64,000 nt of DNA from a virus (Duplodnaviria; Caudoviricetes). Each line of letters begins with the position of its first letter. Position 1 is the stretch's first letter. Where the stretch lies: positions 224,001-288,000 of IMG/VR virus record IMGVR_UViG_3300021514_000002; one strand, 5' to 3'. Positions 42,165 through 62,593 of the stretch are shown one piece after another. Both the position numbers and the translations under genes were made by a program. The notes below the pieces were generated by a model. That model was not told the DNA's origin. It searched no databases and was given only the letters and a program-made list of their open reading frames with translations.

Positions 42165-42944
42165 ATGAGTATTTGTGTTCCAAGACATATAGCGTGTGGG
42201 TGGTATGAACCTAATTTTATCGCAGGTAATGAATCCTGTGAATTGCAGATATTTACTGAAAGTAGATCAAGATTATTGGAGGGTGGTACATTTTTTCGCA
42301 GCATTGAAATTGGCCAACATACAGAGAATATACAAATTGGTTGTAAATGGCAAGTTGCCACAGGAGGAAGTCCTGCGTGGAGATATTATGGTGGTGGGGA
42401 TACACTAGCGGATGTTGGACAAGTTGAATTAACAATTACCAACGGCACCACAACTGAAATCTTTTTTGCTGCACAGCAGATAGTAGGTAGTCCTAATGGT
42501 AGTCCTATTATTTGGGTGAATGCAATTCCCAATCTTCGGGCGCAACTAATAGGTTCTCCTAGTGGTTCGCAGCTTGTCGACATGCCCGAGGATGACATCC
42601 AAACTATAATGGGTGGGAGTCCTACAACGTGGAAAGCTTCATTATATGACGCAGATTACATTGGTGAATTTTTATTGAGCAATTTGGTAGGTGGTTCAGG
42701 TGGACCAACGACTGAAACAGAATTGGATAAGATTCGTACTGGTTCAGTAATGACAATGTTGTACATCGATCAAAGCGAAAGTGATAACCCAGATGGTTCA
42801 TTATCCGATGTTAAAGAAACAAGATACTGGAATGGTGCTTGTTGGAAATATTATGACCCCATAGCCATAGCCCCCGACTGCGATGGTTTATCTTTATGTG
42901 GTTCACCATTAGGATCGCCTTTACCACTTCCAACCTGTCCGTAA
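42165..42944 (+). CDS. Hypothetical Cys/GSP-rich protein, probably virion-associated
   Basis: Follows the PAAR gene; 7 GSP tripeptides in 259 aa. Confidence 0.7.
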   Translation: MSICVPRHIACGWYEPNFIAGNESCELQIFTESRSRLLEGGTFFRSIEIGQHTENIQIGCKWQVATGGSPAWRYYGGGDTLADVGQVELTITNGTTTEIFFAAQQIVGSPNGSPIIWVNAIPNLRAQLIGSPSGSQLVDMPEDDIQTIMGGSPTTWKASLYDADYIGEFLLSNLVGGSGGPTTETELDKIRTGSVMTMLYIDQSESDNPDGSLSDVKETRYWNGACWKYYDPIAIAPDCDGLSLCGSPLGSPLPLPTCP

Positions 42945-43025
42945 TTTTGATTGGTAACTCTCTAAATTTTAATGGTAAATAATAATAGAAATTTTGTTTA
43001 CAATATGAATTAAGGAGATAATAAT

Positions 43026-43517
43026 ATGGCTATAACAAAAAGAGCAGGTGGACATCAGCATGTTTACTGGATGGATTTAAAAGGAAATGGCGTATTAACA
43101 GAATGTGCTGTTTTTAAAGAAGATGGATTTGGTAACATATTCTATCTTGAAATTCCAACCTTGGATGGAATTGATAAAAATCGTTTATTGCGCATCATTT
43201 CTAACCGCAATGCGTCAAACTTTGAACTATGGGATTTAATGAGTCAAATAACACTTAACAATGGTCTTAATGCTCTTGAGTATTTCCATCAATTAGTTAA
43301 AGTTATTACACCAGATGGTGTTGTTATGAATCCTAAATCTGGTATTGTTGGTACCGGTTCTGTTGATACTACATCAGCGACCCAGATGGCTTCCATTGCA
43401 TTAAACAATGCACCAGTTGAAAGTGTATCGGAAAGTGTAGCACTTACCCCTGCCCAGAAACGAGCAGCCACTATAGCAGCCAAAAAAGAGTTGCAAAAGG
43501 AAGCAGCAGCTAAATAA
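43026..43517 (+). CDS. Hypothetical phage protein
   Basis: Shine-Dalgarno AAGGAG; LWDLMSQITLNNGLNALEYFHQLVKV. Confidence 0.75.
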   Translation: MAITKRAGGHQHVYWMDLKGNGVLTECAVFKEDGFGNIFYLEIPTLDGIDKNRLLRIISNRNASNFELWDLMSQITLNNGLNALEYFHQLVKVITPDGVVMNPKSGIVGTGSVDTTSATQMASIALNNAPVESVSESVALTPAQKRAATIAAKKELQKEAAAK

Positions 43518-43538
43518 TATAGTGATATATTAAAACAT

Positions 43539-59304: not shown

Positions 59305-59365
59305 GGCTTCATATTCTCCAATAGTTGCAAGTATTTATACAATGCTCACATGGAGAAAAAGTGCA

Positions 59366-62300
59366 CTATTGGCGAATGTTTTCCTTTGTAAAGGATTGAA
59401 TAATTTCAACGTTTTCCGTGGAGATATCAGGGATGAATATTTCATTTTCCCTGGATTGCACCTGGAACATATCACCAAATTGATTCGTGGTATACGATGG
59501 AACCAATACAACTGAGTTTATTTCTGGTCCTAATGCTGAATGTATTGCGGTTGATAATTCGGTAAAGAAAAACGTGCTTCCGAAATCCCAATCTGAGATA
59601 TTAAAATAAGTTCGTATAACATCAACGATTTTAACTTTAACTTCATTATCCGTTAAATTGTTGATTGTAGGGCGGATTACTTTAAATTTCGCACGAATTT
59701 CAGGTATCGCTCTACTTCCAAATAATAATTTAAATTTACCAGCCTGTAAAATTACAGTATCTGATATCATACCATGTTGAAGTAAAGTATCATATGCCGT
59801 ACGTAAATCCAATGGACTTGGTTCATCGGGTTTAACGTCAGTCTTGTTTTCAAGCCAGCGGGTTATTCCTTCATAATAACCAGTAGTAATAATGAAGGTA
59901 TCGATTATGTTTGATGCGGTAGGATCAACTAAGTGGAATCGTGGTGTAGTATAGAACCATGCAAAATTTAATGGGTATCTACCATATTCGCGTTTATATA
60001 AGTTCGTCGTATTTGCTAAGTCTGAATACCACAATGTCCGTTTTATTGATGTATCATCAACAGGAACCCATGTATCAGTGCTTGATGCTCTGTTAAAATA
60101 AACATATTGTTTAGTACTAACCGTCACAGAAACTGGTAACGGTGAACCCGTTAATACGAAATTTACAACCAAGCCCGTTAATTCAGTTCCTAATGGAGAA
60201 CCCGTAGGATATCCCCATTTTCCTACAGCAGGCGAATGTGGGTCAACACTATCAAAAACATATGTAACACCATCGTCAGTAGTAACTGTTACACTTTCAG
60301 CTTCTTTGCCTAATGTATAGTACATTACTGTATTAGTAAAAACAATTTCGCCATTTGCAGGTGAACCACTTACTATAAAAGTATCCGTCGCATTTAATAA
60401 CGTTGATTGTGTTAAATTATCAGGAACGCCGTCATCATTTGTGTCGGTAGGCAAAACTGATAATCTATTATCATCCGGTACACCTGCGTTTGGTAAACTC
60501 TGTGTTACTAATTCTTGACCTAGTACATTATAATCTTTGTTCTCGCCCATCATTCCTGTTTTACTACCATCTAGGTTAGCACCAAGAATCTTAATATTAT
60601 CATCGCTCGACTTTAATGTATTAAAATTTACTATACTTGTAGTCGTATTACTGTGTCTAAATTTAGTAGTTTGACTTTGTGCGTTCATACGCTTCGTCTT
60701 CCATTGTACTACCCAGCCAGATAATTTACTCGCAGAGAATTGTGCCTCAATACGAACCATGAAAAGGGATAATAACGCTGTAGGATGTGAATCAACTGTC
60801 CATGCATCTGCATCTGCTGAAAAATATAAATCAACGCGTGGGTTTGCAGACGTGGCAGCGTTGTCAAGGGCTGCTTGTATTGTTGTCGATTCGGTGCTAG
60901 TAAAAGTACAGCGTAAATCATTGATTGTGTTTGATGATTTTTCAAATTCTTCTATCATTATATTATAGAAATCAGCACTACATAATAATGGCTCAACTAA
61001 ATTCGTTAATATTTCATTGGAAAGTAATGCCCTATTAGATGACATAAACCCACCGTTCTCAACGTCATTTTCAAGCCAATAGAGAGCAAGATCATCGCCA
61101 AAAATTCTAACATCTTCATAATATTCTTTTGGATCATGCCAAGTAATATATTTAGAATCACCAGAAAATGTTCTATTAACTGATTGAAGTTTTAATATTG
61201 AAGGGTCTTGTAGCATGAACGAATTATAATCGCGGCCATTAACCATTCTATCTTGTGTGTAATATACAGACGGTGCCACTCTACGAACGTGTTCAATATC
61301 TTCTGATACAGATGCATTCTGTAAAGAATTTATTAACGAAAACGTAAACGTAAGTGTTTGCGTAGTGTTAGTTAAATCAAGATACGTAAATGATGCTATT
61401 TTATCTACGACGGATGTCTTTTGTATGATGCTATTACGATTGGATGATGTTCTATACCAAACATCAAAATCACCCGATGGAATATCTGAAAATTCACCGT
61501 CACCAAAAACTAAACGAACCTGATCATTATCAAGTGTTTCGGTTTCAAACTTCTGCCTATTCTTGTTCGTATTAAATAATATATTTTGCGCGTTCGCTAA
61601 TGCTACTTCTATCCATTCACCGTACCTACTTGAGCTATCATCTAAGTGTGGTAATATTTTGGCGTACGGATTTGTTTCGAGGACGGCACGTGTATTAGAA
61701 TCTACATTATTCATCCATACATCGGTTTCATTTATGTTATTAATTGCGAGATCAAATGTTTGGTTTGGGGTTATACCATCAAATGTTTCTTCTTGACGCT
61801 GCAGCGTACCTTGTTTGGTAAAACAGAAAAAGCCTGTTGTATCTGAACCATCACCAAGTCCATCAGACCCGTATAATAATGAGAATTTTAAATTTCGCTC
61901 TGGGCGTTTTTCAACCGGCGAGGTGTCGGTAAGTGTTACAGGTACCAATTCCATTGGAAATGACGTACCAGCACTAGAAGCTGAATAATTGAAAGTGGTA
62001 ATACCATTACCCCTTAGTGACAAATTGCCCCACGTATACAATTCAAACAATACATCTTCTATCTGCACGCGCTCATTAGGGGCAATTGTACCAAAATCTT
62101 GTTCTAATACTCTATTCATTACAAGAAGAAATTGTTCTTTCCAATCAGGATTATTTAAATCGTTCCAAACTATTTTAGCGTTTGATAAATTTCTTCCCTG
62201 TGCGTCTGTTACTAGTTCAGTAGTCTGTATGGTCGTAATTTTTACTAACCCACGAGCTGCAATGTTTCTAGATGCTTTATATGATATAAGTTTAGCTAAT

Positions 62301-62593
62301 CTAAGAATAGATTCCTTACGCTCAGCAGTTGTAATAAAATTTTCATGGGCATTTAAATCAAGACGATATGCCAACACTTCACCAACATAGGCGAAGATTT
62401 CAAGGATGGCAATAAATTCGCTTGATTCTATATAATCATTGAAGTCTTCTGGAAAGTATAATTTTACATAATCCAATAAACTTTCTTTAATAGTACTATA
62501 GTCGAATGCGTTGAAGTTTACACGTGTAAATACTTCATGTGCTCGTGTCCAAGCTTCCGCTCTTGAAATTTCTATTGCCATGTTAACCCTCAA
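59366..62593 (-). CDS. gp6: Baseplate wedge protein (gp6-like)
   Basis: DFNDYIESSE, ESILRLA, VFGDGEF, YYTQDRMVNGRDY; follows gp25; stop is TAG. Confidence 0.85.
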   Translation of the reverse strand: MRVNMAIEISRAEAWTRAHEVFTRVNFNAFDYSTIKESLLDYVKLYFPEDFNDYIESSEFIAILEIFAYVGEVLAYRLDLNAHENFITTAERKESILRLAKLISYKASRNIAARGLVKITTIQTTELVTDAQGRNLSNAKIVWNDLNNPDWKEQFLLVMNRVLEQDFGTIAPNERVQIEDVLFELYTWGNLSLRGNGITTFNYSASSAGTSFPMELVPVTLTDTSPVEKRPERNLKFSLLYGSDGLGDGSDTTGFFCFTKQGTLQRQEETFDGITPNQTFDLAINNINETDVWMNNVDSNTRAVLETNPYAKILPHLDDSSSRYGEWIEVALANAQNILFNTNKNRQKFETETLDNDQVRLVFGDGEFSDIPSGDFDVWYRTSSNRNSIIQKTSVVDKIASFTYLDLTNTTQTLTFTFSLINSLQNASVSEDIEHVRRVAPSVYYTQDRMVNGRDYNSFMLQDPSILKLQSVNRTFSGDSKYITWHDPKEYYEDVRIFGDDLALYWLENDVENGGFMSSNRALLSNEILTNLVEPLLCSADFYNIMIEEFEKSSNTINDLRCTFTSTESTTIQAALDNAATSANPRVDLYFSADADAWTVDSHPTALLSLFMVRIEAQFSASKLSGWVVQWKTKRMNAQSQTTKFRHSNTTTSIVNFNTLKSSDDNIKILGANLDGSKTGMMGENKDYNVLGQELVTQSLPNAGVPDDNRLSVLPTDTNDDGVPDNLTQSTLLNATDTFIVSGSPANGEIVFTNTVMYYTLGKEAESVTVTTDDGVTYVFDSVDPHSPAVGKWGYPTGSPLGTELTGLVVNFVLTGSPLPVSVTVSTKQYVYFNRASSTDTWVPVDDTSIKRTLWYSDLANTTNLYKREYGRYPLNFAWFYTTPRFHLVDPTASNIIDTFIITTGYYEGITRWLENKTDVKPDEPSPLDLRTAYDTLLQHGMISDTVILQAGKFKLLFGSRAIPEIRAKFKVIRPTINNLTDNEVKVKIVDVIRTYFNISDWDFGSTFFFTELSTAIHSALGPEINSVVLVPSYTTNQFGDMFQVQSRENEIFIPDISTENVEIIQSFTKENIRQ

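Follow-up and report, generated by a model that had tools for sequence, protein, structure and literature searches.

An exact Gly-Ser-Pro tripeptide enriched in the outer tail proteins of one clade of uncultured jumbo phages: a possible serine modification motif

The baseplate module and the proteins carrying Gly-Ser-Pro

The 64,000-nucleotide stretch of DNA analysed here (the window) corresponds to bases 224,001-288,000 of the IMG/VR record IMGVR_UViG_3300021514_000002, a tailed phage genome (Caudoviricetes) of 363,531 bp and 36% GC, rated 100% complete. The region from 41.8 to 64 kb of the window is a baseplate module, five of whose proteins carry the tripeptide Gly-Ser-Pro (GSP); throughout the genome the enrichment of this tripeptide is limited to the environment-facing tail (outer tail, baseplate, fibre and sheath proteins, about 20-fold), and we tentatively read it as a motif for O-modification of its Ser. 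Genome-wide counts cover 549 crude open reading frames (ORFs; 109,307 aa), and window counts the ORFs of at least 100 aa (the five bearing GSP and 52 others); expected numbers are derived from amino-acid composition unless a first-order Markov model is named. The gp6-like baseplate protein of the module shares about 46% identity with its counterparts in the jumbo myoviruses XacN1, Xoo-sp13, CM1/RAS14 and RsoM2USA. Further relatives (G001-G004 and others below) are uncultured phage contigs found via gp6; among them G003 (292 kb) is 90% complete, G005 79%, and G002 and G004 34-43%.

The genes of the module are, in order: PAAR, a 259-aa Cys-rich protein, a 163-aa ORF, a 395-aa protein, an 86-aa ORF, a 1022-aa protein, a 3702-aa protein, and gp6-like, gp25-like and hub/VgrG-like proteins. 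The PAAR spike-tip protein (41847..42161, + strand; Pfam PF05488, E 1.8e-12) has no GSP. The 259-aa protein encoded 3' of it (42165..42944, + strand) is the densest carrier, with seven copies at aa 68, 108, 112, 130, 151, 246 and 250. It belongs to no Pfam or PHROG family; five homologues are known, the GSP at aa 112 and 151 and six Cys being invariant, and it may be a disulfide- or metal-stabilised accessory of the spike tip. Its AlphaFold2 (AF2) model, built on five sequences, was unusable (predicted local distance difference test, pLDDT, 37.5). The C-terminus of the protein is a Cys/Pro-rich tail bearing two GSP, and the homologue P0059 has a run reading GSPLCGSPLEGSPVCGSPLEG.

The 395-aa protein, a conserved member of the baseplate cluster (phrog_11259; 43583..44770, - strand), has a single GSP at aa 322, within an insertion of its own lineage; the XacN1 orthologue, 44% identical, has none. 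The conserved 86-aa ORF (44807..45067, - strand) has no Pfam match. The 1022-aa all-beta baseplate/fibre protein (45110..48178, - strand) carries 15 GSP (aa 140, 186, 313, 358, 455, 641, 747, 835, 861, 878, 895, 917, 957, 973 and 978), and most members of its family carry 6-21, with about 0.5 expected. The giant 3702-aa virion protein (phrog_10938; 48196..59304, - strand) has 14; comparison with nine orthologues showed that some of these sites are conserved in the clade and many are lineage-specific, in indel-rich segments, the XacN1 orthologue having none. The 1075-aa gp6-like baseplate wedge subunit (59366..62593, - strand) has three, all in its C-terminal part (aa 743, 798 and 816), of which one is common to G001 and none is shared with G002, G003 or G004. 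The last two genes of the module lack the tripeptide: the gp25-like wedge protein of the inner baseplate (62583..62963, - strand; PF04965, E 5.5e-6, 26.5 bits, just under the 27.2-bit cut-off) and the baseplate hub/VgrG-like protein (63012..63902, - strand; the crude ORF runs past the window end to coordinate 64631).

Over the whole genome, 13 proteins hold 72 of the 87 GSP. The carriers outside the module include four proteins of a fibre operon just upstream of the window (750 aa with 11 GSP, 833 aa with three, 551 aa with four and 211 aa with two), a 935-aa fibre (two), the tail sheath (four), the head-tail adaptor (two) and the major capsid protein (one). Three further copies were found in a 264-aa protein without family match encoded far from the tail modules (genome 26,475-27,269, - strand; L002:475-1269), near a gp23-like capsid paralogue (genome 24,288-24,875); this may be an unrecognised virion or decoration protein.

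GSP is over-represented as an exact peptide

An earlier note on this DNA had counted seven, one, 15, 14 and three GSP by eye in the five ORFs, in the order of the module. These counts are exact, and their total, 40 in 6,453 aa, compares with 1.7 expected by composition (P 2e-40) and 9.0 under a first-order Markov model. The other 52 ORFs of the window have none, in agreement with the note's remark that the motif was not seen in replication or metabolic proteins. The proteome-wide tripeptide count which the note had proposed as a check gave 87 GSP against 15.2 expected by composition (P 9e-37) and 27 under the Markov model (P 5e-20); GSP is the top tripeptide outlier of the genome by about 28 orders of magnitude, the runner-up reaching only about 1e-8. 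The observation is real and stronger than first described.

The enrichment concerns this tripeptide only. Among the G-x-P tripeptides of the genome Ser alone is enriched (GSP 87 vs 15.3; GTP 21 vs 16.2; GAP 10 vs 15), and among x-S-P, Gly alone; neither GTP, GAP, ASP, SSP, TSP, GSA, GSS and GST nor any permutation of G, S and P departs appreciably from chance over the genome. The residues around the motif are nearly information-free, with a weak preference for T, S, V or G at -1 and L or I at +1, and the tripeptides are isolated, not part of long P/T(S) runs or tandem arrays.

The constraint acts on the peptide and not on a DNA repeat, as the earlier note had argued from codon variety. The window has nine 9-mers that would code for GSP in another frame or on the opposite strand (base composition predicts about 10, an estimate), and all six Ser codons occur within GSP. 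The Ser codons are skewed to TCA/TCG, but every Ser-Pro dipeptide has the same skew (GSP vs xSP, p=0.20; xSP vs other Ser codon usage, p=3e-15), which is therefore ordinary codon-pair context. Covariation of GGC-TCG and GGT-TCA was not significant (p=0.056), and a DNA motif (GGYTCRCC, or a GGY/RCC mini-palindrome) was rejected on this linkage value, the missing out-of-frame excess and the ordinary Ser-Pro codon bias. Two other sources were discarded: a longer hidden repeat around GSP (genome-wide flank information is at noise, and the only repeat is a local module of about 45 aa in the 1022-aa protein) and micro-duplication as the driver (close pairs 6 vs 7.4 expected). One pair, at aa 108 and 112 of the 259-aa protein, shares 92% DNA identity and resembles the product of a recent duplication of 12 nt.

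GSP is concentrated in the outward-facing tail

The earlier note had called the motif virion-wide, and this part of its description falls: outer tail proteins (11,087 residues) hold 68 GSP against 3.5 expected, whereas the proteins of the head, neck, tube and inner baseplate module (13,016 residues) are at chance, with three against 2.1. All other proteins (85,204 residues) have 16 against 10.2. The sheath and the capsid protein illustrate how sites are gained. In the sheath, three of the four GSP fall within a 24-aa insertion private to this phage, and another segment that reads PGG-GTVAGEF in relatives is PGGTGSPPGEF here; the GSP of the major capsid protein lies in a loop insertion found only in this phage, G001 and G002.

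The AF2 model of the 1022-aa protein (49 sequences; mean pLDDT 75.6) is all-beta, and all 15 GSP lie in coil, mostly 0-1 residue past one strand and 1-2 residues ahead of the next, in strand connections of typically 4-9 residues. Together with the nearly uninformative flanks, this bears out the short linker-like context described in the earlier note. GSP also starts a recurring beta module of about 45 aa at aa 140, 313 and 455, and in the family alignment the motif is more conserved than its flanks at seven sites (0.6-0.95 vs 0.2-0.5). A Foldseek search of the PDB with the whole model yielded no more than weak matches of the multi-domain beta type (template modelling score about 0.1) and was uninformative. 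GSP is a clade-specific short linear motif in tight inter-strand loops of outward-facing parts of the tail.

This geometry is what would be expected if the tripeptide were an intrinsic structural hinge or beta-strand N-cap (a Ser-Pro or Ser/Thr-type turn) spread by module duplication and loop remodelling, with nothing reading it in trans, and the preference for hydrophobic L or I at +1 fits as well. Against such a cap, the failure of Thr to replace Ser, and of Ala, Asn or Asp to replace Gly, is unusual for a turn motif; since homology is missing between flanks, most sites do not derive from a single module; and the beta-proteins of the inner virion are not enriched.

GSP marks one clade and its sites turn over

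Among the relatives, GSP is enriched in G001 (75 vs 6.4 expected), G004 (46 vs 10.0) and G002 (23 vs 6.7), and at chance in G003 (13 vs 14.7) and in the whole genomes of XacN1 (20 vs 23.4) and RsoM2USA (15 vs 16.9). In the gp6 tree all the enriched loci fall in one clade (support 100/99), with G003 and L037/L041 nested within it on long branches. The trait marks one clade of uncultured phages and is absent from XacN1, RsoM2USA and the nested G003; the tree suggests that GSP was gained at the base of the clade and later decayed in nested lineages.

Forty-nine GSP sites of this phage could be aligned with relatives: 21 are shared with G001, five with G002, three with G004 and none with G003, where 45 sites were aligned, 19 of them to gaps. 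Retention in G001 is 45% for GSP, against 34% for other tripeptides and 30% for loop-like tripeptides (p=0.04). Of the GSP of this phage, 33% lie in insertions specific to it relative to G003; the corresponding share is 3% for tripeptides in general (p 8e-11) and 4% for the loop-like kind (p 9e-8). New sites often come with small insertions.

The motif behaves like a site read in trans, because its density is kept while the sites turn over: a density about 20-fold above chance maintained despite nearly background turnover, restriction to one class of proteins and loss in a nested lineage are what is expected of a trans-read motif, not of a structural keystone. The same comparisons weigh against the strand cap, in that the orthologues of G003, XacN1 and RsoM2USA fold without GSP and sites have been gained in sheath and capsid loops that are otherwise conserved.

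A Ser-to-Thr switch in G003 (GTP 30 vs 15.6) was considered and rejected, the sites being scattered at one or two per protein and not tail-specific. The G004 contig (behind L022) is also enriched in GPQ, PQG and QGP (about 33 vs 5.7), which indicates a collagen-like Gly-Pro-Gln repeat protein.

A glycan-modification cluster is encoded outside the window

The earlier note saw no glycosyltransferase in the window and proposed to look for one elsewhere in the genome. The search found a glycan-modification cluster of 8 kb at 43.2-51.3 kb of the genome, about 160-220 kb away from the tail genes, which includes two MptE/DUF115 genes (one weak), a GT8-like gene and a radical SAM/SPASM gene. The clear MptE/DUF115 gene (PF01973, Maf/WaaZ-type; genome 49977-50750) scores 37.4 bits against a Pfam cut-off of 34.6 (E 2.9e-9; 36 bits in a six-frame search), and the weak second copy was detected by the six-frame search at 44.5 kb. 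In the Atlas the MptE-like protein neighbours viral clusters of PF01973 and a single bacterial cluster, which has WaaZ_KDO_III; in a relative, methyltransferases and a sulfotransferase are additionally seen in the collinear cluster. Elsewhere the genome encodes a KDO-8-P-synthase-like protein (57,811-58,641; PF00793, E 4e-76) and a CMP-sugar synthetase (CTP_transf_3; 176,762-177,490; PF02348, E 3.5e-47); neither has a homologue in the relatives' contigs examined, save the synthase on L116 and on a 301-kb scaffold. A gene of the GT-B family PF13692 was not found in the search of the genome, and a putative 'TPR-glycosyltransferase' of 447 aa has no Pfam or PHROG match. A late-promoter-like motif, [ATG]ATAAATA, precedes both divergent operon heads of the cluster; it occurs in 11% of all genes and carries little weight.

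The cluster tracks the motif in the near-complete genomes available. A 301,415-bp scaffold has a DUF115 homologue of 72% identity and a GSP-rich baseplate block (29 vs 1.5), and L116, from the same metagenome and at the same GC and identity level as the GSP-rich G001, carries the cluster and is collinear with 39.5-61.3 kb of this genome. In G003 the homologues of the genes flanking the cluster are 14 bp apart, the cluster being cleanly absent; it was not found in RsoM2USA either. XacN1 and G013 have GT8-like and MptE-like homologues together with a huge excess of TPT and PTP, which in XacN1 (TPT 325 vs 26; PTP 175 vs 17.5) comes from long Pro/Thr linkers in about 15 large proteins. At 235-281 kb of XacN1 (AP018399.1; L235) the Pro/Thr-rich ORF369, ORF370 and ORF372 stand in one gene string with the GT8-like/MptE-like ORF373 and ORF375 and the sheath genes. 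The virions of XacN1 are reported to contain two or more Schiff-positive glycoproteins (PMC5852040), for which ORF369, ORF370 and ORF372 are candidates. Cluster enzymes without a motif (GSP or TPT/PTP) occur in no genome examined, and the mismatches (G002, G004, G005 and G012) are all incomplete contigs.

The motif as a possible acceptor site for O-linked modification

O-modification of the Ser of GSP, with glycosylation as its leading form, is the reading we favour, at a confidence that falls somewhat short of probable. Serine O-glycosylation was one of several modifications that the earlier note had put forward, and it is now the best single reading because the genome encodes the glycan cluster outside the window; the partners which the note had named fail (see below). 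GSP would be displayed on the baseplate periphery, the giant protein, the fibres, the collar, the outer insertion of the sheath and one capsid loop, where the Gly-Ser-Pro turn would form a rigid, exposed strand cap offering the Ser hydroxyl to a transferase that recognises this cap. The Ser would accept an O-linked group, most likely a sugar; the enzymes would be those of the cluster at 43.2-51.3 kb, with the KDO-8-P-synthase-like protein and the CMP-sugar synthetase supplying the donor. The distal tail would thereby acquire a coat of glycans, with a role in shielding, stability or adhesion, and in the sister clade of the XacN1 type the long (Thr-Pro)n linkers may be the acceptors. The fully specified version, in which DUF115-type transferases put a tailored 8- or 9-carbon keto-sugar on the Ser, the sequon comes and goes by loop insertions and decays with loss of the cluster (as in G003), and the XacN1-type clade uses (Thr-Pro)n, is possible though doubtful.

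Several points weigh against glycosylation. The modification and the link between enzyme and substrate are both inferred, and sites so regularly placed, one or two residues ahead of a strand, would equally fit a structural cap; moreover, the structural evidence is a single AF2 model without coordinates for solvent exposure, and the gp6 tree is that of a single gene, midpoint-rooted. The MptE-like protein has only 257 aa and a match barely over the Pfam cut-off (36-37 vs 34.6 bits), its profile (24 homologues) finds no PDB chain at E<=1, and the enzyme could serve lipopolysaccharide or another glycan instead. The cluster is not on the fragments of the GSP-rich G002 and G004, and the Pro/Thr-rich G005 and G012 show none by BLAST. 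Only about 26% of the ORFs of this phage have any homologue in G003, so the joint absence of cluster and motif there is weak evidence, and the phyletic match comprises few independent contrasts. Finally, none of the 20-kb regions surrounding 79 Maf-like genes of viral contigs is GSP-rich by itself (109 vs 70 overall); these are mostly non-structural regions, and the test therefore says little.

One of the Maf-like loci, L120 (IMG/VR 3300041403_000313), contains the tripeptide VFG 22 times (P 7e-24), which suggests a repeat protein beside the glycan genes.

Alternative explanations and rejected partners

The structural hinge or strand cap described above is the main rival and a serious one; we regard it as possible, at a level of belief that stays tentative. 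It draws further support from the fact that no modifying enzyme is tied to the motif.

Non-covalent binding of the GSP loops by a decoration protein, a fibre-assembly chaperone or a prolyl isomerase would account for the exactness of the motif, its restriction to one assembly class, the turnover of sites at constant density and the on/off phyletic pattern, and the earlier note had raised docking as its second option. Nevertheless, three residues are few for a specific non-covalent site, 15 sites per protein seem excessive for stoichiometric docking, and the binders tested fail to track the motif, which makes this explanation improbable. The 86-aa ORF of the module is 64-80% identical within the clade but is also present in the GSP-poor G011 and RsoM2USA; in the GSP-rich G002 and G004 both neighbours of a late kinase-fold gene (genome 326595-327233) are kept and the gene itself is missing; and a 693-aa tape-measure-like protein likewise does not follow GSP.

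A different chemistry on the Ser, either phosphorylation by PrkA/YeaG or the late kinase-fold protein or radical SAM chemistry by SPASM enzymes of the fibre operon, is very unlikely. Ser-Pro is a classic kinase context, and the SpoVR / DUF444 (YeaH) / PrkA (YeaG) block (19918..24744, - strand; Pfam) has counterparts of 67-81% identity in G002 and G004 and none in the GSP-poor G003. However, PrkA, which is 66% identical to the 'YeaG' of Enterobacter phage LAU1, also occurs in the GSP-poor RsoM2USA (54% identity), which removes the YeaG/PrkA partner proposed in the earlier note, and the kinase-fold gene has the distribution given above. The fibre operon (genome 213,041-218,232, that is L001:8041-13232, and L001:14249-15904) has three clear and one weak radical SAM peptide-maturase-like genes lying between GSP-rich fibre genes. 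Their best matches, under the family cut-offs, are PapB/ranthipeptide/SPASM proteins, that is, Cys-directed maturases, for which the alternating Cys-Thr run at the C-terminus of the adjoining 551-aa fibre is a likelier substrate; furthermore, these genes were not found on the contigs of the GSP-rich G001, G002 and G004. By their sequence they look like a cross-linking system, in the style of ribosomally synthesised and post-translationally modified peptides, acting on a virion protein.

The two remaining partners of the earlier note fare no better: the Zn_protease/retropepsin-like gene (32407..33300, + strand; Pfam PF05618) has a homologue in the GSP-poor G003, and no 2-oxoglutarate oxygenase of the prolyl 4-hydroxylase type (PF13640) was found in the genome. 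The DUF488 gene located after DNA polymerase B (38588..39004, + strand; Pfam) occurs in five contigs of the GSP clade and not in G003 or the outgroups; it is absent from the GSP-rich G006, however, and is an implausible partner. DUF488 is discussed with the ParB/CTPase fold in the preprint 10.1101/2025.10.10.680097.

That GSP is a by-product of composition, codon or DNA repeats or micro-duplication, with no functional feature behind it, would suit the duplicated pair in the 259-aa protein and the somewhat higher G, S and P content of tail proteins, but it is refuted by the out-of-frame, composition/Markov, codon and close-pair tests, the enrichment also holding across relatives of 36-45% GC, and it keeps next to no probability. 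What probability remains goes to something not yet considered.

Relation to known systems

The proposed mechanism is most like the Maf/DUF115 glycosylation of flagellin and the glycosylation of mycobacteriophage virions, yet it does not match either. O-glycosylation of flagellin by Maf/DUF115 (PF01973) proteins uses nonulosonic acids activated with cytidine monophosphate (Campylobacter, Helicobacter, Aeromonas and Geobacillus). The likeness lies in the combination of a DUF115/MptE-like gene with putative donor-sugar genes, for a keto-sugar synthase-like protein and a CMP-sugar synthetase, and in many Ser sites on exposed loops of a filament or appendage protein, whose modification would precede assembly, in the cytoplasm. 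In contrast to GSP, the flagellin sites conform to no strict sequon, either Ser or Thr being accepted; the Maf proteins of bacteria have about 600 aa with extra domains, whereas the MptE-like protein here consists of the domain only; and the substrates of this putative system would be phage tail proteins.

For mycobacteriophages, virion O-glycosylation on the C-terminal Ser/Thr-rich tails of capsid and tail-tube proteins is described by Freeman et al. 2023, as cited in PMC12619734. There too phage-encoded glycosyltransferases modify the phage's own structural proteins, as would be the case here; the differences are the exact tripeptide dispersed in outer-tail loops, the lack of enrichment in tube and head, and the distance of the cluster from the tail genes, the glycosyltransferase genes of the mycobacteriophage type lying next to those for structural proteins. 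The XacN1-type linkers likewise combine a hydroxy residue with proline in large structural proteins and, in XacN1, adjoin GT8-like/MptE-like genes. XacN1 is moreover a relative by gp6, with homologues of two cluster genes, but its (TP)n linkers are long low-complexity runs and tandem arrays, and GSP consists of isolated exact tripeptides.

The general O-glycosylation system of Bacteroidota recognises D-(S/T)-(A/I/L/V/M/T), also a three-residue sequon with a hydroxy residue by which one system acts on many unrelated proteins. Unlike it, GSP has Gly at -1, Pro at +1 and Ser only, its candidate enzymes are encoded by the phage, and the motif is over-represented, not merely permissive. Ser-Pro/ST-turns and Pro strand caps usually tolerate Thr or small residues and are not lineage-specific. 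GSP resembles them in its place in tight turns right before beta-strands (as modelled) and departs from them in that GTP is at chance and the orthologues of related phages lack the motif. In the T-even gp38 adhesins, glycine-rich motifs delimit hypervariable loops, are confined to one domain and build a scaffold; GSP sites are, similarly, short conserved islands between fast-evolving segments of host-recognition proteins, but they are scattered among a dozen unrelated proteins and occur in loops of the sheath and capsid too. Nothing relevant came up in a literature search for Gly-Ser-Pro as a sequon of bacteria or phages.

Should GSP prove to be a modification sequon, phage virion glycosylation would have its first defined acceptor motif, and sequence alone would then suffice to predict modified sites and proteins in a large group of uncultured jumbo phages. 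Such a sequon would also reveal how a phage can restrict its coat to those parts of the tail that face the environment, and bear on host recognition, resistance to proteases and defences, and phage engineering. Even if its role is structural, an exact tripeptide spreading through a dozen unrelated proteins of one clade and vanishing in a nested lineage would be an unusual case of motif-level convergent evolution.

A second over-represented tripeptide, GCP

GCP is over-represented 4.4-fold in the genome (15 vs 3.4). It was considered as a motif equivalent to GSP by exchange of Ser for Cys and rejected, all 15 copies belonging to treble-clef zinc-finger repeats of the form H-x4-G-C-P-x-C in seven Cys-rich ORFs (e.g. 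16986-17579, + strand, and 26530-27462, - strand, of the window). One of these ORFs matches the treble-clef zinc-finger family DUF4379, and the pattern suggests that homing-endonuclease-like genes of one family are scattered over the genome.

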